From assembly GCA_041288095.1 (NCBI GenBank), contig JBGGMJ010000030.1:1-10943 (forward strand): a DNA stretch of 10,943 nt, in the 5' to 3' direction. Position numbers and translations under genes: made by a program. The notes beneath the pieces were generated by a model. That model did not search any database. It was not told where the DNA came from and was given only the letters and a program-made list of their open reading frames with translations. Below are positions 1 to 10,943 of this stretch, in pieces (the stretch's first letter is position 1; each line of letters opens with the position of its first letter). The stretch comes from Myxococcota bacterium. GTDB taxonomy: Bacteria > Myxococcota > XYA12-FULL-58-9 > JALHOP01.

Positions 1-444
1 GTATCCGTTTTCGCGGAGCTTGGCTTGGTACACCTCACGTGAAGCAAGCGCGGCATCGCGCTGCGAAGGCGTGTGCCAGTAGATGGCGCTGCGGTACTGC
101 GAGCCGACGTCGTTACCTTGGCGCATGCCTTGGGTCGGATCGTGGTTCTCCCAGAAGACCTTGAGCAGCGCGTCGACGCTTACCTTGTTCGGGTCGTAGA
201 CGATGCGCACGGTCTCGGCGTGGCCGGTGCCGCCGCCGCAGACCTCCCTGTAGCTGGGGTTCGGTGTAGTGCCGCCCTGGTAACCGACCCAGGTGCTGTA
301 AACGCCCGGCACTTGCCAGAACTTGCGTTCGACGCCCCAGAAACAACCCATGCCGACGTCGAGCACCTCGTGCCCGGGCGGCACCGTACCGAGCGGCATG
401 CCGTTGACGAAGTGAGTGGCGGGAAGAGCGATAGCCGTAGCCAT
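1..444 (-). CDS. msrA: Peptide methionine sulfoxide reductase A (3' end beyond the left edge)
   Basis: Manual minus-strand translation from ATG at 444: [15 protein letters not shown]...[55 protein letters not shown]...[26 protein letters not shown]. Contains the MsrA hallmarks GCFWG, GHAE and HDPTQxxRQGNDxGxQYRS. GAGGA SD just upstream. Open to position 1. Confidence 0.97.
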
Positions 445-504
445 GATGGTCCTCGTTCGAGGTCTATACGCTAGCGCACACACCATGCGAAGGTCGCCCG
501 GCGC

Positions 505-1389
505 ATGCGGCTCGCGGTCGTTACCTCTGAAGAATATGCACAGCTGATGCCCGCTGATCGGGCGCTTGCCGAGGCCTTGAAGGCCCACGGCATCGACGCG
601 GCACCGGCTGTGTGGAGCAATACGGCGGTACCCTGGCAAGGTTTCCAGGCCGCGCTCATTCGATCGCCCTGGGACTACTACTTGCGAGCCGCCGAGTTCG
701 AAGCCTGGCTCGATCGCATCGAAGCTTTGCGGCTGTCCCTCTGGAATCCCGTCCGCACGGTGCGCTGGAACATGCACAAGGGGTACCTTTCGGAGCTCGC
801 CGAGGCAGGCGCGCCTTTGCCGGGGACGGTCGTCGTGCGCGGCGATGCGCTGGCTCCATCACTGTCGGCGATCTTCACCGAGCGCGGCTGGCCAGCCTTG
901 GTGATGAAGCCGGCGGTGTCCGGCGGCGCCTTCGAGACCTACAAGGTCGAGCGCGACGATGCCGCCGCTTTCGAGGAGCGCTATCGCGGCATTCACATGC
1001 GCGGCGACGTCATCGTCCAGGAGTACTGCCCGCGGATCGAAACCAGCGGCGAGCTCTCGCTCATCTACGTGGGCGGCGTCTTCACGCACGCCTGCCGCAA
1101 GGTGCCCAAGGACGCCGACTTCCGCGTCCAAGAACGCTTTGGCGGACGGAACCTACGGCATACGCCCACGGCCCTCGAGCACCACGCAGCCGAGCGCGTG
1201 CTCGAAGCGACGAAGAAGCTCGGATACGAGCACGCCTACGCGCGCGTCGACCTGGTCCACCACGCCAATGATCTCGTGCTCATGGAGCTCGAGGTCATCG
1301 AGCCCTGGCTCTTCCTCGACACCGTGCCCGAGGCGACGGAGCAGGTGGCGGAGTTGCTGGCGCGGCGGCTAGTGAATTCGCAGACCTAG
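505..1389 (+). CDS. ATP-grasp enzyme, RimK/glutathione-synthetase-like, DcsG-like subfamily; substrate unknown
   Basis: Motifs [49 protein letters not shown] and [12 protein letters not shown] match the ATP-grasp family containing DcsG (recognised from memory). GC3-rich codon usage. SD is weak. Confidence 0.85.
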
Positions 1390-3135
1390 CGGCAGCATCA
1401 TCATCACGCCTTCTTCATCGAGCAGGCGCCGCTGCACCCGCACCGCTTCGCGACCGATGTCATTGTCCAGCAAAGCGGACAACAGGCTGGCTCTGGCGCC
1501 GCCCCCGAAGAGCGATTTCACCACTTCGAGCGGCGTCTTGGTGGCCGGGAAGTCGAGCAGCTGCACGTTCTTCGCGTCGGCTACGTTGGCGCGCTCGCGC
1601 AAGCGCGTCAGCGCGAGCTCCATGCCGCCGAGCTCGTCGACGAGCCCACGCTCGAGAGCGGCGCGGCCACTCCACACGCGACCCTTGGCGATGGCGTCGA
1701 TAGCGGACACGTCTTTTTTGCGGCGCGCCGCCACCTTGCCGATGAAGTCCTGGTAGACGTGATCGGCGCCGGCCTTGAGCACGGCGATGCGGCGTTCGTC
1801 GAGCGGCTCAGTCGCGGCGAAGGCCCCCGAGTTCGGCGTCGACTCGTAGGCGTCGACAGTGATGCCGAGCCACTTGGCGAGGGCTTCACGGATGGCGAAG
1901 GCGCCGGCGTAGACGCCGATGCTCCCGGTGATGGTAGCGGGCTCGGCGACGATGTAATCGCCGTCCATGGCGATGAAGTAGCCGCCGGAGGCCGCGAGCG
2001 AGCCCATCGACACCACCACCGGTATGCCCGCCGCGCGCGTCACCTCGACTTCACGGCGCGCCACGTCACTCGCGATGTACGAGCCGCCGGGGCTATCGAT
2101 GCGCAGCAAGACGCCCTTCACCTTTTGCTCGCGCGCCTCGCGTAGCCCGCGCGCGATGTATTCCGAGCTCACGTCGTCCCGCCCGACCCCGTCGGGCGCC
2201 TCGCCGCGCACGATGGCGCCCGCCACCGTGACGACCGCGATCTCTGGTCCGCTTTGGTGGAGCTGTCCGTCGTTCCAGTACGTGTCGACGCCGAAGAGAT
2301 GGTCCGGCCCGCCGGTGAGCTCGTCGACGTCCTTCTCGACCTCGTCCCAGTAGGCGAGTCGATCGATCAGCTTCTGCTCGAGGGCCGAAGCCCCGAGGAA
2401 CGGGCCGCCGCGCACCCATTTCCAAGCGGTCGCTTCGTCGACTCTGCGGCGCGCCGCGATGTGGCGCACGAGGTCGGCTTGCAGATCGTCGACCAAGGCT
2501 TTCAGCGACTCGCGGTGTGCCGCAGTGAAAGCGCGCTCGGTGAACATGTTGGCGGCGTTCTTGTATTCGTAGCGTTGCTCGAAGTGCGCTTTCACCTCGA
2601 GCTTGTCGAGCAAGCCGGCGAAGAACATCGCTTCGGCGCGCAGACCGACGAGGTTCACGTCGCCGGGCGGCGCCATCACCACCTTGTCCGCTAAAATGGC
2701 CGCCGCGTAAGCCGCGTTGCCCCGGTCGCCGTCGCCGGCGGTCTCGAGGAAGGCACAGCTCCACTTGCCGCTTGCGCGGAAGGCCGCCATCGCTTCTTCG
2801 AGCTCCTGCAGCTGCGCCAAGCCGAGCTCGGGGTCGACGACTTCGAAGAGCACGCCGACGACACGATCGTCCGACGCGGCGCGTCGTAGACTCTCGGTCA
2901 CGCCGCGCAAGGTCATGGGCAGGGGGTCACCGAGGAAGCTCTTGAGGCTGATCTCGGCGCGCTCCACCAATGGCCCGGCGAGCTTCACGTGCATGACGCC
3001 GCGCTTCGGCACCGTCGGACCACGGTTCGAGAACAACGCGATCACGAAGATGAGCAGGGAGAGGAGGAAAAAGGCCGCCGCGGCGGCCCTGATCATCATC
3101 CCAAGAGTCCCGAAAAAACCGCGACGTTCACGCAT
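1369..3135 (-). CDS. sppA: Signal peptide peptidase SppA, 67-kDa type (protease IV, peptidase S49)
   Basis: N-terminal TM segment and two S49 domains. YEYKNA (general-base Lys), LRIDSPGGS, VVVSMGSLAASGGY (nucleophile Ser), TITGSIGV, GRVWSG..A...GLVDELGG. Overlaps the ATP-grasp gene 3' end by 21 bp. Confidence 0.96.
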   Translation of the reverse strand: MRERRGFFGTLGMMIRAAAAAFFLLSLLIFVIALFSNRGPTVPKRGVMHVKLAGPLVERAEISLKSFLGDPLPMTLRGVTESLRRAASDDRVVGVLFEVVDPELGLAQLQELEEAMAAFRASGKWSCAFLETAGDGDRGNAAYAAAILADKVVMAPPGDVNLVGLRAEAMFFAGLLDKLEVKAHFEQRYEYKNAANMFTERAFTAAHRESLKALVDDLQADLVRHIAARRRVDEATAWKWVRGGPFLGASALEQKLIDRLAYWDEVEKDVDELTGGPDHLFGVDTYWNDGQLHQSGPEIAVVTVAGAIVRGEAPDGVGRDDVSSEYIARGLREAREQKVKGVLLRIDSPGGSYIASDVARREVEVTRAAGIPVVVSMGSLAASGGYFIAMDGDYIVAEPATITGSIGVYAGAFAIREALAKWLGITVDAYESTPNSGAFAATEPLDERRIAVLKAGADHVYQDFIGKVAARRKKDVSAIDAIAKGRVWSGRAALERGLVDELGGMELALTRLRERANVADAKNVQLLDFPATKTPLEVVKSLFGGGARASLLSALLDNDIGREAVRVQRRLLDEEGVMMMLPLGLRIH

Positions 3136-3266
3136 GAGGCCCCCAAGACGCGCCGGCCCCGGGGTAGCACATATTAATAGGTCCGTGACAGCCGTCGGAA
3201 ATCACCGACTTGACATACTGCGTCACGAATCTTACTCATCTAGACAGTGAAAAGACATGGGGTCGT

Positions 3267-3295
3267 TTGACACACGGAACGAGCGTTCCTATGTT
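3267..3295 (+). promoter_or_regulatory. Sigma70-type promoter for the TPR-ton-oar cluster
   Basis: TTGACA (3267-3272), 17-nt spacer, TATGTT (3290-3295), in an AT-richer intergenic tract of a GC-rich sequence. Confidence 0.7.
3276..3289. promoter_or_regulatory. Palindromic candidate operator inside the promoter spacer
   Basis: GGAACG-AG-CGTTCC is a perfect 6-bp inverted repeat abutting the -10 hexamer. Confidence 0.5.
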
Positions 3296-3344
3296 CTTTC
3301 CACTTTTTTCACTTTCTCGGGAACCACAAAGCCTCGGGTGGCGT

Positions 3345-4160
3345 TTGAAACCTAGGGTCGTTGTAGCTCTACTGGCGTTTGCGTCGCTCTTTGGCACCGC
3401 AGGGTGCACTGAGCTCGATGCCCACATCGCCGCCAATGAGGGCTTCAAGGCCTACAAGGCACGCGACTACGAGAAGGCTGTCGCGAAGTACGACGAGGCG
3501 CTCAAGGGCAAACCCGGGAACGCGCTCCTGCAGAAGAACCTCGCCTACGCGCACATGGCCTCGGCACGAAACGGCAGCGGGGACCGGGCGACCTTCGACG
3601 CGCACATGACGGCGGCCATCGCCGTCCTCACGCCGATGGTGCAGGCCGACCACTCGGACAAGGAGGCCATCGAGCAGCTCTTCTCCGCCTGGACCGAAGC
3701 GGGGCGTCTCGATCAAGCCGCTGCCTTCTTCATCAATTGGGCGAACGCCGATGACAGCGACGAGGCATGGCGCCTGGTGGCGCAGGTCGAAGCGCAGCGC
3801 GCCAACTATCCGGCCGCGCTCGCCGCCTTCAAAAAACGTATCCAGAAAAACCCGAATGACCCCTCGCTCAAGCTGGCCATCGGCACGCTGAGCTGGGAGT
3901 GGCTCCGCCAAGGCGGACCGATCGACAACGAAGAGGCGCTTCGTGTGGCGACAGCGGCCTACGAGTCGACACTCGAAGCAGACAAGGCAGGGCAAGCGAA
4001 CGCCATGACCTACGCCGGTCTCTTGCTGAGAGAGCGGGCGAAACGTCAGGCGACAGAAGTCGATGCACAAGCTGATTTGAAACGTGCCGAGGAGATCGCC
4101 GCGTTGTTGCGCACGCGAGAGCCCGACACCAGCGCGACTGCTCAAAAAGCACCGCACTGA
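3345..4160 (+). CDS. TPR-repeat lipoprotein associated with the Ton cluster
   Basis: In-frame TTG at 3345 gives MKPRVVVALLAFASLFGTAG-C, a typical signal peptide II with lipobox. It is followed by helical TPR-like segments (EGFKAYKARDYEKAVAKYDEALKGKPGNALLQKNLAYAH; EAWRLVAQVEAQRANYPAALAAFKKRIQKNPND). The start is inferred; the ORF track begins at 3210. Confidence 0.8.
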   Translation: MKPRVVVALLAFASLFGTAGCTELDAHIAANEGFKAYKARDYEKAVAKYDEALKGKPGNALLQKNLAYAHMASARNGSGDRATFDAHMTAAIAVLTPMVQADHSDKEAIEQLFSAWTEAGRLDQAAAFFINWANADDSDEAWRLVAQVEAQRANYPAALAAFKKRIQKNPNDPSLKLAIGTLSWEWLRQGGPIDNEEALRVATAAYESTLEADKAGQANAMTYAGLLLRERAKRQATEVDAQADLKRAEEIAALLRTREPDTSATAQKAPH

Positions 4161-4206
4161 AAGCCTACGTCAGGCCGCTTTAGCGGTCGGGCGAGGGAGT
4201 AGGCTT
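4161..4206 (+). promoter_or_regulatory. Intergenic RNA hairpin overlapping the tonB translation initiation region
   Basis: AAGCCTAC (4161-4168) pairs perfectly with GTAGGCTT (4199-4206). Inner stem GGCCGCT (4173-4179) / AGCGGTC (4182-4188). SD GAGGGAG at 4193-4199, ATG at 4209. Confidence 0.55.
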
Positions 4207-4208
4207 AG

Positions 4209-4940
4209 ATGTTCGAGTCGTACGTCGAAGCACAGCGCAGTCCTGTTTTGCGGCGCACCACGTTTTTCTCCGTGGCGGCGGCGTTGCACGGCGCGTTGAT
4301 TATCGGCCTCATCATCGCGCCCATCATCCGCTTGCAGGCAGTCGAGCCGCCCTCGATGAGCGTCGAGCTCTTCGAGACCGCGCCTCCGCCTCCGCCGCCT
4401 CCACCACCACCTCCGCCCGGTGGCGGCAAGTCGAAGCCGAAGGTCGAGAAGATCGAGCCCAAGGAAGAGCCCAAGACGCCGACCAACGAGATCATCGAGA
4501 AGCCGGAGATCAAGGAACCGGAGCCCACCAAGGAAGAAGACGGCGGCCAAGAGGGCGGGGTCGAGGGTGGTGTGAAAGGTGGCGTCGTCGGCGGCACCGT
4601 TGGTGGTGTCGTGGGCGGAGTCATCGGCGGGACACTGGGTGGTACGGGTAACGCGCCAGCGAAGATGATCGCGAGACCGCCGACGCGGATTGGCGGCCGC
4701 GACCCGATCCCTCCCGCGGCGGCGAGCAACATCAACCTCATCCACGCGTCGAAGGTTTGCATCGACATCAACGGCAACGTGACCTCGGTGACCATCCTGC
4801 GCGGCGCTCCCGGGTTCGACGAGGCCGTCAAGGACGCGTCGAAGACTTGGAAGTACGAGCCGAATCGGGTGGGCGGGATTCCCACGCCTGCGTGTTTCCC
4901 ACTGACCGTGAACTTCAAGGCAAGCACGACGAGAAACTGA
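4209..4940 (+). CDS. tonB: Energy transducer TonB
   Basis: N-terminal TM with conserved His (SVAAALHGALII), poly-Pro and EPK-rich linker, (GGxx)n tract, and a TonB_C-like domain (VCIDINGNVTSV...FDEAVKDASKTWKYEP...PLTVNF). Adjacent to exbB/exbD. Confidence 0.92.
   Translation: MFESYVEAQRSPVLRRTTFFSVAAALHGALIIGLIIAPIIRLQAVEPPSMSVELFETAPPPPPPPPPPPPGGGKSKPKVEKIEPKEEPKTPTNEIIEKPEIKEPEPTKEEDGGQEGGVEGGVKGGVVGGTVGGVVGGVIGGTLGGTGNAPAKMIARPPTRIGGRDPIPPAAASNINLIHASKVCIDINGNVTSVTILRGAPGFDEAVKDASKTWKYEPNRVGGIPTPACFPLTVNFKASTTRN
4383..4418 (+). repeat. CCN tract encoding 12 consecutive prolines in TonB
   Basis: cct ccg cct ccg ccg cct cca cca cca cct ccg ccc. Confidence 0.95.
4542..4649 (+). repeat. Degenerate 12-bp tandem repeat encoding (GGxx)9 in the TonB linker
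   Basis: GGQE GGVE GGVK GGVV GGTV GGVV GGVI GGTL GGTG. Synonymous codons vary, so conservation is at the protein level. Confidence 0.9.
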
Positions 4941-5002
4941 CGTTCGTCATAGCGAACTATCGCATCAGCGTCCGGGGCAGCTCGGGCAAAGGACAATGAC
5001 TC

Positions 5003-5680
5003 ATGCAATTTACCTTCAGTGAGCTCTGGGCCTCGATGGGCGTCGGCGCGCGAGCCGTCGTCTTCGTTCTCGGCGTCATGTCGGTGTACGTCGTCGGCAT
5101 CACCATCGAGCGCTATATCCACTTCGCCCGCGCGCGCAGGGCTTCGAGCCGCTTCATGGAGCAGCTGCGCCAGGCAGTCCGCGACCGCGCGACGCTGGCT
5201 GCCGCGACGACCATCGCGGCGGAGCATCCCAAGGCGCCGCTCGCTCACGTCGTGCAGGCCGCCGCGGTCGTCGTCAGCCGAGGTGCTGGCCGAGAGCCGA
5301 TGGAGCTCGTCCTCGGGATGAACCGCGCCATCGAGCGCGTCACCTCGCGTGAGACCTCGTACTTGAAGCGCGGCCTCGGCGGCCTCGCGACTATCGCTTC
5401 GACCGCGCCGTTCGTCGGCCTCTTTGGCACCGTCTTGGGCATCATCAACGCCTTCCAGCTCATGGCGGCGTCGGGCTCGGGTGGTCTCGCGACGGTCAGC
5501 GCCGGTATCTCCGAAGCGCTCATCACCACGGCGTTCGGCCTCTTGGTGGCCATTCCCGCCGTCGGCCTGTTCAATCTCTTCAACGGCAACGTCGAGACCT
5601 TCACCGTCGACATGGAAGAAGTCGGCAGCGAGCTCGTCGAGACCGTGGTCGTGGGCGGCGGGAACGCCCGCGCGGCCTGA
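5003..5680 (+). CDS. exbB: MotA/TolQ/ExbB family proton channel
   Basis: Three TM segments. Motifs LATIASTAPFVGLFGTVLGIINAF and VSAGISEALITTAFGLLVAIPA. AAGGA SD upstream. Called exbB rather than tolQ from the tonB/TBDT context. Confidence 0.95.
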   Translation: MQFTFSELWASMGVGARAVVFVLGVMSVYVVGITIERYIHFARARRASSRFMEQLRQAVRDRATLAAATTIAAEHPKAPLAHVVQAAAVVVSRGAGREPMELVLGMNRAIERVTSRETSYLKRGLGGLATIASTAPFVGLFGTVLGIINAFQLMAASGSGGLATVSAGISEALITTAFGLLVAIPAVGLFNLFNGNVETFTVDMEEVGSELVETVVVGGGNARAA

Positions 5681-6171
5681 TGAGTAACGTGCAGGGAACG
5701 CCACCGCCGGCGCCGCCGAACCTGTCCGCGGCGCGCGTCATTCGCTACTTGCCGCTCTTCGACGGCAAGAAGCACCGCCATGGCGGTCAAGAGGCAAAAG
5801 CGGACATCAACATCACGCCGCTCGTCGACGTCGTGTTGGTGCTGCTCATCATCTTCATGGTGGTCACGCCGTTGCTCGAGCGGGCCATCAAGCTGCCCGA
5901 GGTCGATCAGCCCGAGGCGTGGAAGACCGGCGAAGAAGATCTCAACGTGGCGATCGACAAGTCCGGCAAGGTCATGGTCGACACTGACACGGTGACGGTC
6001 GAGATGCTGCCGCAGAAGCTGGCACAGGCGCTCAGTCGCAACGTGAACCGCCAGATCTACTTGGAGATCGATCGCACGGTGAAGTTCGGAACCGTGCGGC
6101 CAGTGCTCAAGGCGCTCGCCGACTCGGGTGCGTCGAACGTCGGACTCGGCAGCGCGCCGCAAAAAAAGTGA
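5680..6171 (+). CDS. exbD: ExbD/TolR family protein, copy 1
   Basis: ADINITPLVDVVLVLLIIFMVVTP with the essential TM Asp, and a periplasmic domain (IYLEIDRTVKFGTV...GASNVGL). TGATG overlap with the exbB stop. Confidence 0.95.
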   Translation: MSNVQGTPPPAPPNLSAARVIRYLPLFDGKKHRHGGQEAKADINITPLVDVVLVLLIIFMVVTPLLERAIKLPEVDQPEAWKTGEEDLNVAIDKSGKVMVDTDTVTVEMLPQKLAQALSRNVNRQIYLEIDRTVKFGTVRPVLKALADSGASNVGLGSAPQKK

Positions 6172-6190
6172 CAGTCGCGATCGAAAAATT

Positions 6191-6215
6191 GGAACTAGAT
6201 CGTCGATTCCGCGTT
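6191..6215 (+). promoter_or_regulatory. Candidate ECF-sigma promoter internal to the cluster
   Basis: GGAAC (6191-6195), N16, CGTT (6212-6215), preceded by AAAAATT, within the 157-bp exbD1-exbD2 spacer. Confidence 0.45.
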
Positions 6216-6328
6216 GTGCGTGGATCGACTTGGTGTAAACAGACCCACAGTAACGTACGCGCACCCGTGTGCGTCGTTGCTGTCGTAGATGGACAAGAGT
6301 CGCCCGGAGACTTTTGGGGGAGCCATCA

Positions 6329-6775
6329 ATGGCAATGAACGTCGGTGGAAGTAATGCCGGACCACGCGCGGACATCAACGTCACGCCGCTCGTGGACGTC
6401 GTGCTGGTGCTGTTGATCATCTTTTTGGTGGTCAGTCCGGCCGCGACCTTCCAGGTGCCCAATGCGCTGCCGCGGACCGGCACCGTGACTACCGCGGCGC
6501 TGACCGCCGAGCAGGTGGCCGTCGAGCTCCGCGATGACGGACAAATCTACTTCATGGGCGAGCTGACGACGGGGCCGAGCCTGCCGCAGCAGCTGCGCGG
6601 CGCCCTGCAAGATCGACTCGAGCGTACCGTTTTTTTCGTGGCTGGGGACGAAGTTGACTATGGAAGTGTCGTCCGCTGGATGGCCGTGGCCAAGCGCGAA
6701 GGGGCAACCACCGTCGCGCTGCAGGTCAAGCCACCGGCAGCGACTACTGAACCAGGAGCGGGAGCAAATCCATGA
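6329..6775 (+). CDS. exbD: ExbD/TolR family protein, copy 2
   Basis: MAMNVGG...ADINVTPLVDVVLVLLIIFLVVSP...VFFVAGDEVDYGSVVRWMAVAKREGATTVAL. ATG at 6329 follows a GGGGGAG SD and is preferred over the ORF-track start at 6269. Confidence 0.95.
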   Translation: MAMNVGGSNAGPRADINVTPLVDVVLVLLIIFLVVSPAATFQVPNALPRTGTVTTAALTAEQVAVELRDDGQIYFMGELTTGPSLPQQLRGALQDRLERTVFFVAGDEVDYGSVVRWMAVAKREGATTVALQVKPPAATTEPGAGANP

Positions 6776-7956
6776 GATGGCTTTTCGGGCGAGCTGATTT
6801 CGACACGATTGCACGCGCTGGTGTGCTGTCCGTTTTGGCGGCAACCGCGGCCTGCGGTAACGACGACGTGGCGTCACCGGGCATCATCGGTGGGCAGTGG
6901 TTCGACGCGGCGGTCGCCGAAGATGTCGTGTCGCCGCTCGATCTCTTCCCGGCGGGGTTCGTGGTCGACGGCGCCGGCGCGCCAATCGCGTCCGCTGATG
7001 CGGTCGATCTCACGGGCGCCAACGCGGGTCTCGGCGCGCACACCTCGGTGGCTACCAACGTCGGGAACCTCCAGGTGCTCTTCAACGAGCCGCTGAACCC
7101 CGACGTCATCCAGGACTTGGTCATCAACAGTGACCGTCCGGTCGACCTCGAGAATGGGCCGTTCAATCGCCAGTCCGAGTTCAACCCCGGCATCGAGGAC
7201 ATCGTGCCGCGCACGGGTCTCGTCGATATCGTTCGCGTCTCGACGGGCGAGCACTTCGCGGTCGAGTCCTTCTATCTCGACAACATCCGCCGCAACGTCT
7301 CCGAGGTCACGCCCGACGTCGGCCTGCAGCTCTTCCCGCTCGACGTTCTGCCGTCCAACGAAGAGTTTCAAATCCGCGTCTACGCGGGCGTCATCGAGGA
7401 TCGTGACGGCAACAAGGTGCAAGGCGCGCCTCGCCAATCCTTGCCTGGTGGTGTCGGTCGTCCCGAGACCGTCGGTGTCGTCACCGAGTCCGATGGCCGG
7501 CCGATCGCGGCTGTGCTCGGCTTCCTGACCGATGCGATTGAGGTGGCGGCGGTCGCGTTCCCAGTGTTGCCGGTCGATGATGACGGCGTGCCGACTTCGC
7601 TCGTCACCGAGGACGATCCGGAGACCTTTGAAAACGAGACCGCCCTGGTGGTCGACTTCAACACCCCGGTCGAGCCCGCTGGCGTCGAGGGCGCTTTCAT
7701 TCTCACCGCGGTCGGCGACCCGGCGACGCCAATCCCGTTCACGGTGATCCCGTACGAAACCGGCTCGACCGTCGACGAGAACGGCGACCCGGATCCGGAG
7801 GCCGAAGCGGAGGCGCACCCGACCTCGGTGCAGATCGTTCCCACGGTGCCGCTCGCCGAGGGTGATTACGAGCTCCGAATCGACCCGACCTACGAGGACA
7901 CCTACGGCAGCGCGGCCGTCGGCGTCGTCCAGGTCGAGCCGTTCACCGTCGAATAA
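6772..7956 (+). CDS. Acidic lipoprotein with two putative Ig-like (Big_5/SbsA-type) domains
   Basis: ATGA overlap with exbD2. Signal peptide II ending VLAATAA-C28. Two copies of a Big_5-like pattern: LQVLFNEPLNP...LFPLDVLPSNEEFQIRV...IEDRDGN and LVVDFNTPVEP...IVPTVPLAEGDYELRI...YEDTYGS. Domain call is by eye. Confidence 0.75.
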   Translation: MRWLFGRADFDTIARAGVLSVLAATAACGNDDVASPGIIGGQWFDAAVAEDVVSPLDLFPAGFVVDGAGAPIASADAVDLTGANAGLGAHTSVATNVGNLQVLFNEPLNPDVIQDLVINSDRPVDLENGPFNRQSEFNPGIEDIVPRTGLVDIVRVSTGEHFAVESFYLDNIRRNVSEVTPDVGLQLFPLDVLPSNEEFQIRVYAGVIEDRDGNKVQGAPRQSLPGGVGRPETVGVVTESDGRPIAAVLGFLTDAIEVAAVAFPVLPVDDDGVPTSLVTEDDPETFENETALVVDFNTPVEPAGVEGAFILTAVGDPATPIPFTVIPYETGSTVDENGDPDPEAEAEAHPTSVQIVPTVPLAEGDYELRIDPTYEDTYGSAAVGVVQVEPFTVE

Positions 7957-7996
7957 GTCCTGACAGAACACTGAACGCACGAAGGAACGACGAAAG

Positions 7997-10943
7997 ATGA
8001 AATCGAGAATCCTCGCAGCAGCAGTCGCGTTCGTGGGTCTGTCGGCGACGACAGCCTACGCACAACAAACCACCGGCACCTTACGCGGTGTGGTCACCGA
8101 TCCGGACAACAACAACCAACCGCTCGCGGGCGCGACGGTCGTCGCGACCTCGCCGCAGTTGCAGGGTGAAGAAGTCGCGCTCACCGATGAAGGTGGCCGT
8201 TACGTCATCACCAACCTGCCTGCCGGTGAATACCGCGTGAACTTTTCGTTCGCGGGTGTCGCCGTCGAGCGCACTGGTATCCGCGTCCTCGCGTCGCAAT
8301 ACGTGACCATCGACATGAAGCTGTCGACCTCGCAGGCGCAGGGTGAGGTCCTCACCGTCGAGGCACCGGCGCCTTCGGTCGACGTCGCGTCGACGACAGT
8401 CGGCACCACGGTCACGCGTGAGATGATCCAGAACGTGCCACTCGGCCGCACCCGCGACGTCTCGAGCGCGGTCAACGTGCTCCCGTCGGCGACGGCGGAC
8501 GACTTTGGTGTCTCCATCGGCGGTACGACCTCGCCCGAAAACCAGTTCATGGTCGATGGCTTGTCGATCAACGACATCGGCTACGGCTTGCAAGGTCAGC
8601 GCCTCATCCTCGAGTTCGTCGAGCAGGTGAACATCAAGGAAGGCGGTTATCTTCCCGAATTCGGTCGCGCCACCGGCGGCTATGTCGAAGCCATCACCAA
8701 GGGCGGTGGTAACGAGTTCCACGGCTCGGTGTTCGCCTACTGGCGGCCTGGGTTCTTGCAGACCGACCCCAAGGAAATCATCCGCGCTGGTGAGTCGATC
8801 TCGTCACAGCAGAAGCTCGGCCACTACGTGAACGCGGGCGCCGAGATCGGAGGCTACATCATCAAAGACAAGCTGTGGTTTCACGCGGGTTACGCGCCGG
8901 AGTATCAGCTCGACCGCTGGACCCGCACCTTGAACGCGCGTGTACCCGACGCGGCCAACAATCAGGTACTCGACCCTGACGGCAACTACGTGACGACGCC
9001 GATCGCCGCTGATCGGTTCGACTCGAACGTTATCACGCACCACTTCACGGCGAAGCTGACGCACCTCATCAGTCAGAACCTCCGTCACTCGCTTTCGGTC
9101 ACGGGTGCGCCGACGTATTTCCACGGCATACGCGAAAACCCCTTCGACACGAACTCACCGAAGATGTCGATGAATTCGGATCCCCAGACGGCGCGCTTCG
9201 ATGAGAACCAGGGCAACGTTTCGGCGATCTACAAGATCACCGGCAAGTTCTTCGACAACAAGCTGCAGCTTGATGGCTCGATTGGCTGGTTCCACAACGA
9301 ACGCATCGTTCAGCCTCACTTGGGCGAGCAGACGCCGCTGTATGTGTACAACTACCCACGCGACTACACCGACATCGCGGCGCAATGGGGGCCCTCGTCT
9401 ACGCCCGGTGCGGATTTGTCCGAGTGCCAGCAGACCTTCAACGACGGCACGAGCCGCTGCGTGGTCGAAGGTTACCGCGTCAACGGCTTCAACATCGGCA
9501 ACGTCAACACGACGGTCGCGAACCGCTTCGCAGAGCGGTTCGCTATCACGCACATCGGCGATTTCGCGGGTTTGCACCAGTTCAAGTACGGTCTCGATTT
9601 CGAGCAAAACACCTACTACAACCGCCGCCGCTATCCTGGTGGTGGCTTCTACACCGCAGTTTCGCCGACATACGCCAACGGCGATGACCGCATTCGCCAA
9701 CAAGCGTACTTCCGCGCCAATGAAGACGGGACCGGCCGTCCCGATCCGCGCGGTGTCATTGGCGACACCGAGGGACGCACCTGGGCGCTGTTCGTTCAGG
9801 ATACGTGGAACCCGACTACCAACCTCACGGTCAACTACGGTGTCCGCTGGGAAGGACAGCAGCTCTATGGTCTCGATTACGCGGGAGAGATTGGTGACAA
9901 AGAGCAGGCATTGGCGATCTGGGACAACTGGGCGCCTCGTGTCGGCGCGGTCTGGGACTTCCTGGGTGGCGGCCGCTCCAAGCTCTTCGCCAACTGGGGC
10001 CGCTACTATGAGCAGATCCCGCTCGACATCACCGACCGTCAGTTCGGTGGCGAAGGCATCGCGCTCACCGACTACCGTCTCGGCGCCGCCGGCGGCGGTT
10101 TCCCCGGCTCGATCGGCACCGGTCGTTGCCCGGGCGTCGACATCAACAGCACCACCGACGTCGTCAGCGACTGCGGGCTGTACTATCGCCGCCAAGCGCT
10201 CGGCGCGACTTCGGGTCTCGTCGCGCCAGGCTTGAAGGGTCAGTACACCGAGGAAATCCAGCTAGGTGGCCAGTGGGAGTTCATCCCCAGCTGGGTCGGT
10301 GGCATCACCGGCATCTACCGCAACCTCGGCCGCGCCATCGAGGACATCTCGACGGACGGCGGTGTTACGTACCTCGTCGCCAACCCAGGTCAGTTCGACA
10401 TGAACGAGCTCGACAAGGTCGACAACGACATCGCGCGTGAGACCGATCCGCTCAAGCGCGGTCGCTTGGAGACGCTGCGCAACCGCTTGGCTGCGATCAA
10501 CAACTTTCCGAAGCCCATTCGTCGCTATCTTGCGGCGCAGTTCACCTTGGACAAGCGCTTCCGCAACGACTTCCAGATTCAGGCGTCGTACCTGTTGTCG
10601 TTCAGCCGCGGTAACTTCCCGGGTCTCTTCTCGGCGAACAACCAGCAGCTCGATCCGAACATCACGTCGACGTACGACCTGCCGACGCTGCTCGTGAATC
10701 GCTATGGTTGGCTGCCGCAGGACAACCGTCACCGCATCAAGGTCTTCGGCTTCTATCAGATCGACTTCCGCAAGATGGGGTCGATGCTGCCGATCACCAT
10801 CACGCCCGGTCTCGGAGTGAACATCCGCAGCGGCAAGCCGATCGACGCGCTCGGCGCCGACCCGGACTACGGTGAAGACGAAGCATTCCTCATCCGCCGC
10901 GGTTCGGCTGGTCGTACCCCTTGGATCTGGGCCGCCGACGTGC
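7997..10943 (+). CDS. oar: Oar-family TonB-dependent outer-membrane transporter (3' end beyond the right edge)
   Basis: Manual translation is open for 982 codons. Signal peptide MKSRILAAAVAFVGLSATTAYA-Q; carboxypeptidase-regulatory-like N-domain (TGTLRGVVTD...ATSPQLQGEE..LTDEGGRY...LPAGEY); TonB-box-like GEVLTVEA; plug GVSIGGTTSPENQFMVDGLS...EFVEQVNIKEGGYLPEFGRATGG...NEFHGSVF; barrel motifs ALFVQDTW...LTVNYGVRWE and WAPRVGAVWD...SKLFANWGRYYEQIPLD. These closely match my recollection of M. xanthus Oar; orthology is not proven. AAGGA SD upstream. Confidence 0.93.
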   Translation, partial: MKSRILAAAVAFVGLSATTAYAQQTTGTLRGVVTDPDNNNQPLAGATVVATSPQLQGEEVALTDEGGRYVITNLPAGEYRVNFSFAGVAVERTGIRVLASQYVTIDMKLSTSQAQGEVLTVEAPAPSVDVASTTVGTTVTREMIQNVPLGRTRDVSSAVNVLPSATADDFGVSIGGTTSPENQFMVDGLSINDIGYGLQGQRLILEFVEQVNIKEGGYLPEFGRATGGYVEAITKGGGNEFHGSVFAYWRPGFLQTDPKEIIRAGESISSQQKLGHYVNAGAEIGGYIIKDKLWFHAGYAPEYQLDRWTRTLNARVPDAANNQVLDPDGNYVTTPIAADRFDSNVITHHFTAKLTHLISQNLRHSLSVTGAPTYFHGIRENPFDTNSPKMSMNSDPQTARFDENQGNVSAIYKITGKFFDNKLQLDGSIGWFHNERIVQPHLGEQTPLYVYNYPRDYTDIAAQWGPSSTPGADLSECQQTFNDGTSRCVVEGYRVNGFNIGNVNTTVANRFAERFAITHIGDFAGLHQFKYGLDFEQNTYYNRRRYPGGGFYTAVSPTYANGDDRIRQQAYFRANEDGTGRPDPRGVIGDTEGRTWALFVQDTWNPTTNLTVNYGVRWEGQQLYGLDYAGEIGDKEQALAIWDNWAPRVGAVWDFLGGGRSKLFANWGRYYEQIPLDITDRQFGGEGIALTDYRLGAAGGGFPGSIGTGRCPGVDINSTTDVVSDCGLYYRRQALGATSGLVAPGLKGQYTEEIQLGGQWEFIPSWVGGITGIYRNLGRAIEDISTDGGVTYLVANPGQFDMNELDKVDNDIARETDPLKRGRLETLRNRLAAINNFPKPIRRYLAAQFTLDKRFRNDFQIQASYLLSFSRGNFPGLFSANNQQLDPNITSTYDLPTLLVNRYGWLPQDNRHRIKVFGFYQIDFRKMGSMLPITITPGLGVNIRSGKPIDALGADPDYGEDEAFLIRRGSAGRTPWIWAADV

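Follow-up and report, generated by a model that had tools for sequence, protein, structure and literature searches.

What does a complete set of Ton genes do beside a large outer-membrane transporter and two lipoproteins in a Myxococcota bacterium, and in which direction would such a system work? We addressed this question for a stretch of 10,943 nt (contig JBGGMJ010000030.1, positions 1 to 10,943, assembly GCA_041288095.1; hereafter the window), in which positions 3345-10943 hold an operon for a tetratricopeptide repeat (TPR) lipoprotein, TonB, ExbB, two ExbD proteins, an immunoglobulin (Ig)-like lipoprotein with a Big_5 domain and a TonB-dependent transporter (TBDT) of the Oar class. The original prediction, made from the letters alone, had described it as an Oar-type Ton machine with two dedicated accessory lipoproteins for macromolecule export or import. 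Judged from gene conservation, the new element is a TBDT-lipoprotein pair docked on a Ton operon, with a putative Big_5 partner family undescribed before. We tentatively favor the reading that this two-module operon performs TonB-driven import of a large non-iron substrate, a reading that we place somewhat short of probable.

We listed the open reading frames (ORFs) of the window and scanned its 10 proteins against Pfam and NCBIfam. The results showed seven genes on the plus strand, which are given below in order with a promoter-like site; scores are in bits, followed by the model cutoff where one is stated.

3267..3295, plus strand: promoter-like site TTGACA-17-TATGTT, 10/12 positions matching, upstream of the first gene
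3345..4160, plus strand: TPR lipoprotein, 271 amino acids (aa), TPR_19 and TPR_14 above cutoffs, signal peptide, lipobox GTAG/C
4209..4940, plus strand: TonB, 243 aa, PF03544 at 28.5 versus 24.6 and TIGR01352 at 28.1 versus 27.1
5003..5680, plus strand: ExbB/TolQ-family proton channel subunit, 225 aa, PF01618 (MotA_ExbB) at 105
5680..6171, plus strand: ExbD1, 163 aa, PF02472 at 85
6329..6775 (ORF open from 6269), plus strand: ExbD2, PF02472 at 69
6772..7956, plus strand: Ig-like (Big_5) lipoprotein, 394 aa, lipobox TAAC, Cys28, Big_5 at 21.8 versus 23.6
7997..10943, plus strand: Oar-class TBDT by its Pfam domains, first 982 aa, 3' end beyond the window

Seven ordered and strong domain matches make a chance pattern impossible, and the operon is real and conserved. 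This inventory of co-oriented genes agreed with the original prediction, as did its two overlapping stop/start junctions: the ExbB stop and the ExbD1 start overlap by one base (TGATG, 5678-5682), and the ExbD2 stop overlaps the start of the Ig-like lipoprotein (ATGA, 6772-6775). We read both junctions as translational coupling from the sequence. The predicted TTG start of the first gene at 3345, which gives MKPRVVVALLAFASLFGTAGC, was upheld as well, because the corresponding ORF of L001, the nearest relative, has the same start, and the lipobox Cys of the TPR protein was invariant in 9/9 aligned sequences. L001, which is 92% identical to the window, is labelled as an uncultured Bdellovibrionales metagenome-assembled genome (MAG). 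The position of the promoter-like site is consistent with the TTG start, and the site was the sole one of its kind in 3000-10943; shuffled sequence gave a mean of 1.1, so we counted it as a consensus match only. ExbD2 likely starts at ATG 6329, behind the ribosome-binding site GGGGGAG; the ExbD2 ORF of L001 is shorter (153 aa). A 157-base untranslated gap (6172-6328) lies between exbD1 and exbD2 in an operon that is otherwise tightly packed, and L001 has a similar gap; scanning of the window gap found no Rfam family and no promoter-like site. The original prediction had seen no Fur box, ABC transporter or carbohydrate enzyme, and this also stood: in the Pfam scan, none of the 10 window proteins had a domain of an ABC transporter or a carbohydrate enzyme, and the window had no Fur box at up to 3 mismatches to an E. 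coli-type motif that may not suit this phylum. An Rfam scan of the whole window matched no family.

To place the operon among its relatives, we scanned a single genome for each species; of 597 confirmed relatives, the best 80 were retained, which gave 79 loci. Their titles were mostly Myxococcota, Myxococcales or Deltaproteobacteria, with few other labels. Layouts were called by searching the window proteins against all ORFs of these loci. The window order (TPR, TonB, ExbB, ExbD, ExbD, gap, TBDT), here called type A, was found in 10/79 loci (L001, L002, L041, L043, L044, L051, L054, L067, L073 and L075), and every one of them had a lipoprotein gene in the same slot as the window. The eight type A loci other than L001 and L002 were mostly labelled Kofleriaceae or Haliangiales; two type A loci were labelled only Deltaproteobacteria or delta-proteobacterium, and L067 was labelled Acidobacteriota. 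In type B, the Ton genes are divergent from the TBDT gene. This layout was found in 16 loci (L003, L004, L008, L009, L016, L021, L032, L033, L034, L039, L040, L049, L055, L059, L060 and L065), including Myxococcus, Corallococcus and Sorangium. The remaining 53 loci had a TBDT without Ton genes in the flanking DNA examined, in which some contigs were short. We took L008 (Myxococcus sp.) to represent the oar locus; its TBDT has 80% identity to an M. xanthus protein and 73% identity to GluM (P0162) of Corallococcus sp. EGB. The gene directly after the L008 TBDT is a member of the MlpA family by its Atlas score (0.96) and by its structure (template modelling (TM) score 0.75), and MXAN1451, which adjoins oar, is listed as a "putative lipoprotein MlpA" among the proteins detected in the outer-membrane fraction of M. 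xanthus (PMC3222651, Table 4). On these grounds, type B is the oar layout.

The survey revealed that the lipoprotein gene goes with the TBDT gene. A Big_5-family lipoprotein gene abutted the TBDT start in 37/79 loci: the first two lipoprotein-family profiles found an ORF ending at the TBDT start in 29/79 loci, including L026 and L068, and an iterated profile added 8 (L007, L012, L031, L037, L069, L071, L072 and L002, the last weakly, E = 0.0035). Most of the Big_5-paired loci had no Ton genes in the examined flank, and those present in the TBDT tree described below were all on the window half, L055 excepted. An MlpA homologue stood directly after the TBDT in 33/79 loci (three-round jackhmmer from the L008 MlpA-like protein, 13238-13954), all of them on the Oar half where the locus is in the tree. 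Either lipoprotein family thus abutted the TBDT gene in 70/79 loci (37 Big_5 and 33 MlpA), and the remainder included several contigs ending close to the gene. Lipoprotein pairing is therefore near-general in this TBDT family. In addition, the L055 locus, which stands on the deepest branch of the Oar half, was mixed: downstream of its type B TBDT, where MlpA usually lies, positions 13171-15276 encode a protein of 701 aa that includes two stretches of Big_5 (95 bits). L066 encoded a further lipoprotein with a Big_5 match by Pfam only.

Because the Ig-like lipoprotein was paired with the TBDT also in loci without detected Ton genes, it is not an accessory of the Ton machine. The earlier claim of two dedicated accessory lipoproteins therefore stood in part: both were conserved beside homologous clusters, but the Ig-like one travels with the TBDT and not with the Ton genes. 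Three MAGs held a Ton-linked pair and a second pair without Ton genes in the examined flank (L051 with L007, L075 with L019, and L073 with L028), which is the pattern of one motor serving several gates. As a possible conserved partner, the secreted TPR proteins encoded after the Ton-less pairs were rejected, as these were canonical multi-repeat TPR proteins with generic similarity. The excerpts of PMC1790865 and PMC3222651 do not describe a pairing of TBDT and Big_5 lipoprotein, and in the literature excerpts searched, the terms TonB-dependent, Big_5 and lipoprotein co-occurred only for O-glycosylation in Prevotella intermedia. MXAN_1451 does not occur in the Oar secretion paper (PMC6434023). 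The conserved position of its family suggests that MlpA may be an overlooked partner of Oar.

We next characterized the Ig-like lipoprotein. PF13205 (Big_5) matched the window copy at 21.8 bits, below the cutoff of 23.6, and its homologues P0004 and P0006 above it (29.9 and 26.3 bits); the positional equivalents in L041, L051, L061 and L067 scored 32-67 bits. A word-based search gave a close family of 6 proteins including the window copy, and a HMMER profile scan of 1.84 billion representatives gave 9 matches at E ≤0.001. Five new family members (P0127, P0129 and P0131-P0133) were all lipoproteins of 312-391 aa. The slot lipoproteins of the Kofleriaceae-type loci had a significant C-terminal Big_5 match (32-42 bits). 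Comparison of an 11-sequence profile of the window family with the Kofleriaceae-type family gave 84% probability (E = 7.5e-6, 169 columns); an earlier 6-sequence profile had given no significant link (E = 0.027, 1.8% probability). An AlphaFold2 model from the merged 18-sequence alignment was all-beta, with a mean predicted local distance difference test (pLDDT) score of 80.6 and a predicted TM-score of 0.75; it replaced a first fold from 6 sequences that was unusable (pLDDT 40.6). The best folds in the PDB were SbsC (4uic, E = 1.1e-5) and the Ig domains of LdtMt2, with TM-scores of about 0.2, which are expected to be low for multi-domain chains. An Atlas feature search placed the protein nearest to Big_5 clusters (score 0.94). 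Matches of the lipoprotein profile to CopC in the PDB (E = 0.18 or worse) were dismissed as generic Ig-like similarity.

Further features of this lipoprotein family were observed. The Kofleriaceae-type Big_5 lipoproteins carry eight invariant cysteines after the lipobox Cys, and the window version is without them. P0128, a protein of 5690 aa, had 36 separate matches to the lipoprotein profile, all at query 185-216 (LP..EEFQIRVYAGVIEDRDGN), and the motif is therefore a repeat unit of large Ig-repeat surface proteins.

The TBDT carries a signal peptide (AYA/QQ), followed by a CarboxypepD_reg extension, the TonB box, the plug and the barrel. The extension (residues 28-109), by which the Oar class is defined in PMC6434023, matched PF13620 (CarboxypepD_reg) at 58.6 bits versus 32.3, and the barrel matched PF25183 (OMP_b-brl_4) at 104.6 bits versus 30 and PF00593 (TonB_dep_Rec_b-barrel) at 31.2 versus 27. 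The match to the plug model PF07715 was weak (21.0 bits, below the cutoff of 23.9); the family profile locally matched the plug regions of YncD, PqqU, FepA and PfeA (E = 1.5e-6 to 1.7e-5). The TonB box, G116-EVLTVEA-123, aligned with a conserved block in 18 relatives, and its E117...V121 lie one residue off the functionally tested E118/I122 of Oar. Plug and barrel motifs were likewise conserved across 18 relatives (18-sequence alignment). The TBDT had at least 800 homologues, and full-length relatives measured 1071-1076 aa (L001: 1074 aa). A single-sequence PDB search returned nothing at E ≤0.01, and the family profile matched only short plug or barrel motifs of Cir, PqqU, YncD, FepA and PfeA, at no more than 39 bits; SusC chains were not among the PDB matches of this profile. 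Compared with the TBDTs of oar loci, the window protein was about 34% identical over its full length. Full-length similarity on one side and short local motifs on the other place it with the Oar class rather than with characterized siderophore or glycan importers, as had been predicted.

To further resolve this placement, we constructed a FastTree tree of 74 TBDT rows (the window, one row each from 71 loci and two further rows from L017), leaving out 11 ORF pieces shorter than 900 aa from 8 loci. The tree split the TBDTs into a 34-row half with all 14 type B rows and a 40-row half with the window. The latter comprised a clade of the window, L001 and L002 (100% support), the Kofleriaceae-type type A clade and other rows. 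An IQ-TREE analysis of a 30-row subset gave the same split, with a Shimodaira-Hasegawa-like approximate likelihood ratio test value of 100; both trees were unrooted. The window TBDT thus lay outside the clade of oar-locus TBDTs, and the split was 100% supported in both trees. With this split and an identity of about 34%, the window TBDT is, as far as sequence can tell, a class relative of Oar and no orthologue. The label "Oar-type" of the original prediction accordingly held for the domain class (PF13620, barrel and TonB box) but not for the branch, and oar loci are differently built. It is also a very wide class, because the PF13620-type architecture covers 28% of all TBDTs (PMC6434023, section 15).

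The same placement bears on two alternatives. In one, the barrel itself would be a surface hydrolase, like the β-1,6-glucanase GluM of Corallococcus. GluM is described in a review as an outer-membrane β-barrel glucanase (PMC10800785), and its 73% identity to the L008 TBDT shows that it belongs to the same broad family. The window protein, however, is only about 34% identical to the GluM branch, across the main split, and Pfam found no glycoside-hydrolase domain in it. We therefore consider an enzymatic barrel very improbable. In the other, the TBDT with its own Ton set would move a periplasmic protein outward, as Oar reportedly does for PopC, or bring the Ig-like lipoprotein to the surface, with the TPR lipoprotein as a periplasmic adaptor. 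Against oar-type loci, the window TonB, ExbB and ExbD reached scores equal to or above those against most Kofleriaceae-type ones, and the Pfam scan found the operon to be without import partners. The mature Ig-like lipoprotein begins CGNDDVAS (6853-6876, residues 28-35), with Ala at +7; in M. xanthus lipoproteins, this position has been linked to export into the matrix (PMC3222651). This Ala is replaced by Ser in P0004, P0005 and P0006, so its match to the matrix-export signal is probably not meaningful. Export is further opposed by the position of the window TBDT outside the branch that holds the oar loci and by the lack of any candidate cargo gene, protease or other, conserved in the cluster. 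The presence of several lipoprotein-TBDT pairs in a genome also agrees better with a diversification of substrates than with a single route dedicated to secretion. We regard export as quite unlikely, and no result here speaks for the export or the macromolecular cargo of the original prediction.

We then examined the energizer. The MotA/ExbB, ExbD (twice) and TonB_C domains lie in one operon, all above Pfam cutoffs. The NCBIfam models that matched ExbB best, TolQ (142 bits) and ExbB (108 bits), did not reach their equivalog cutoffs. Not only for ExbB but also for the two ExbD proteins, the TolQ/TolR models outscored the ExbB/ExbD models, and all scores were below every equivalog cutoff. The TonB_C domain and the linked TBDT speak for Ton rather than Tol. 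When searched against type B proteins, the window ExbB, TonB and ExbD scored equal to or higher than against most Kofleriaceae-type type A proteins: ExbB gave 131-185 bits versus 115-169, and TonB 78-123 bits versus 76-103. The TonB protein is built of an N-terminal membrane anchor, a poly-Pro tract, a Lys/Glu-rich stretch, eight x-G-G-V repeats and TonB_C, and the same build was found in 17 aligned TonB proteins of both locus types. The repeats (EGGV EGGV KGGV VGGT etc.) are encoded at 4530-4640 (residues ~108-144), between the Lys/Glu-rich stretch and the C-terminal domain, and several of their Gly and Val residues are invariant in the 17 proteins. This repeat linker differs from the proline-only linker of E. 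coli TonB. L037 holds a lone TonB-like gene (7208-7894, 119 bits to the window TonB) directly upstream of its Big_5 lipoprotein-TBDT pair, with no ExbB or ExbD, and this TonB may be a dedicated paralogue for the pair.

The Tol-like scores lead to a further explanation, in which a core Ton/Tol-like motor with a TBDT-lipoprotein pair would serve outer-membrane homeostasis. The higher scores of the TolQ/TolR models agree with it, even though they lie below every cutoff; the TPR protein of the operon is reminiscent of CpoB in Tol-Pal, and the Kofleriaceae-type clusters stand amid housekeeping-like genes, suggesting a core, vertically inherited system. A homeostatic role is opposed by the true TonB_C domain, by the TonB box of the TBDT and by the Pfam scan, which found no Pal, TolB or OmpA-like gene in the window. 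In M. xanthus, the Ton-linked TBDT MXAN_0821 resisted deletion (PMC6434023) and oar mutants show envelope deformation (PMC3222651), which would fit such a role. On balance, we consider envelope maintenance unlikely.

The TPR lipoprotein belongs to the Ton side of the operon. TPR_19 matched it at 32 bits versus a cutoff of 25. A TPR homologue opened 10/10 type A clusters, and no TPR gene was found in the 16 type B loci, indicating that the gene goes with the co-oriented form of the Ton operon. In M. xanthus, Lys at +2 marks inner-membrane retention of lipoproteins (PMC3222651). Both window lipoproteins are without +2 Lys; by this rule, taken from another lineage, the TPR lipoprotein is probably held in the outer membrane, and the M. 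xanthus rule suggests the same location for the Ig-like lipoprotein. The Kofleriaceae-type TPR lipoproteins (L041, L044, L051, L067 and L073) have a Cys-rich insertion of about 60 residues, which is missing from the window, L001, L002 and L054.

These results are best accommodated, in our tentative view, by import through two modules. In the energizer module, ExbB and two different ExbD subunits would take up the proton motive force and TonB would relay it across the periplasm; the TPR lipoprotein would be a TonB accessory, by its likeness to TtpD2 of Vibrio TonB2. In the gate module, the Oar-class TBDT and the tandem Big_5 lipoprotein would form a complex at the outer membrane, with the lipoprotein acting as a substrate-binding co-receptor or lid. 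We infer such physical contacts, surface exposure of the lipoproteins and inward transport from the genes, their domains, order and conservation; candidate substrates are peptide, protein or polymer fragments. We favor import because the canonical TBDT parts are all present, genomes hold more than one such pair, the cluster is without a conserved cargo gene beside it, and the characterized TBDT-lipoprotein pairs (SusCD, RagAB and TbpAB) are importers.

Several results weigh against import. The Pfam scan found no inner-membrane permease, periplasmic binding protein or substrate-processing enzyme in the window, and no permease, binding protein or processing enzyme was conserved beside the relatives. 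The neighbors of the Kofleriaceae-type clusters look like nadC, birA and a uvrD-like helicase, which we presume from their N-termini, and those of L001 are aromatic-catabolism genes. The profile link to the Kofleriaceae-type lipoproteins covers the C-terminal half only. The only relatives studied by experiment have roles other than import: Oar is reported to act in PopC secretion (PMC6434023), and GluM, on the Oar branch, is an outer-membrane β-1,6-glucanase according to a review (PMC10800785).

A broader proposal, which we consider doubtful as a whole, is that the Oar-class TBDTs of Myxococcota are obligate two-part gates, in which the cognate lipoprotein would be MlpA for the Oar branch and a tandem Big_5 protein for the window branch. 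The window would then be a complete, ancestral-style machine in which the TPR lipoprotein tethers TonB to the outer membrane and the gate handles proteins, possibly outward. If this proposal were true, MlpA would be an overlooked partner in Oar-dependent secretion, and TBDTs outside Bacteroidota would have a new class of co-receptor in the Big_5 family. The pairs of TBDT and lipoprotein in Bacteroidota and Neisseria are well understood; beyond Bacteroidota, we know of hardly any mechanistic data on the Oar class, for whose best-known member the export of a protein is claimed. The two unrelated lipoprotein families in 70/79 loci pose a cheap and concrete question of complex formation for both pairs, and the compact seven-gene unit, including its TPR lipoprotein, is suited to reconstitution.

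Outside the operon, the window encodes MsrA, an ATP-grasp enzyme and SppA, all upstream and none on the operon transcript. The best model for the ATP-grasp enzyme (505-1389) was the D-cycloserine synthetase DcsG (152 bits versus a cutoff of 360). The SppA signal-peptide peptidase gene (1369-3135; 303.5 bits versus 311.45) is convergent to it, and their 3' ends overlap by 21 bases. In L001, the genes at 13302-21012, on the same strand after the TBDT, encode a haloacid dehalogenase-like (HAD) hydrolase, a short-chain dehydrogenase, a luciferase-like monooxygenase, an asparaginase II-like protein, an aldehyde dehydrogenase, two LigB-type dioxygenase subunits and a cyclase, and look like an aromatic or aminophenol catabolic set. 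The set begins 77 bases past the TBDT stop and may be co-transcribed with the operon. It was rejected as a part of the system, as such genes do not lie beside the Kofleriaceae-type clusters.

Finally, we compared the operon with known systems. With Big_5/SbsA-type proteins such as SbsC and the Ig domains of LdtMt2, the lipoprotein shares the fold and the Big_5 motif; these proteins differ in domain arrangement (TM-score about 0.2), and neither is a TBDT partner. With Vibrio TonB2, the window shares a Ton operon with an extra TPR protein. TtpD2, the 425-aa TPR protein of the TonB2 operon, is reported as essential for TonB2-dependent iron transport by a mechanism described as unknown; it is encoded last and is not described as a lipoprotein in the excerpt (PMC6957404), whereas the TPR lipoprotein of the window is encoded first. 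Equivalents of TtpB and TtpC are absent from the window operon. The SusC/SusD systems of Bacteroidota likewise have a TBDT that measures about 1000 aa or more and carries a CarboxypepD_reg-type extension (PMC6434023, section 15), a TBDT gene beside a lipoprotein gene and several pairs per genome. Their partner is the helical SusD, whereas that of the window is all-beta and Ig-like with its gene upstream; Pfam matched no SusD/RagB domain in any window protein, and the window is without polysaccharide-utilization enzymes.

The closest comparison is with the oar locus of M. xanthus. According to PMC6434023, Oar (MXAN_1450) carries a PF13620 extension at its N-terminus and has tonB1-exbB1-exbD1-exbD2 as neighbors; it depends on its TonB box, and PopC secretion requires Oar. 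The account of Oar, its neighboring Ton set and PopC in the original prediction was correct. The oar locus and the window share the CarboxypepD_reg extension, the OMP_b-brl_4 barrel, the TonB box, a complete Ton set with two ExbD, an unusual TonB with poly-Pro and x-G-G-V segments, and a lipoprotein gene touching the TBDT gene. In oar-type loci, the Ton genes are divergent, no TPR gene was found and MlpA lies downstream, and in L001, which is nearly identical to the window, the TBDT is followed by the HAD hydrolase and not by MlpA. The window, in contrast, has co-oriented Ton genes, a TPR lipoprotein and an upstream Big_5 lipoprotein.

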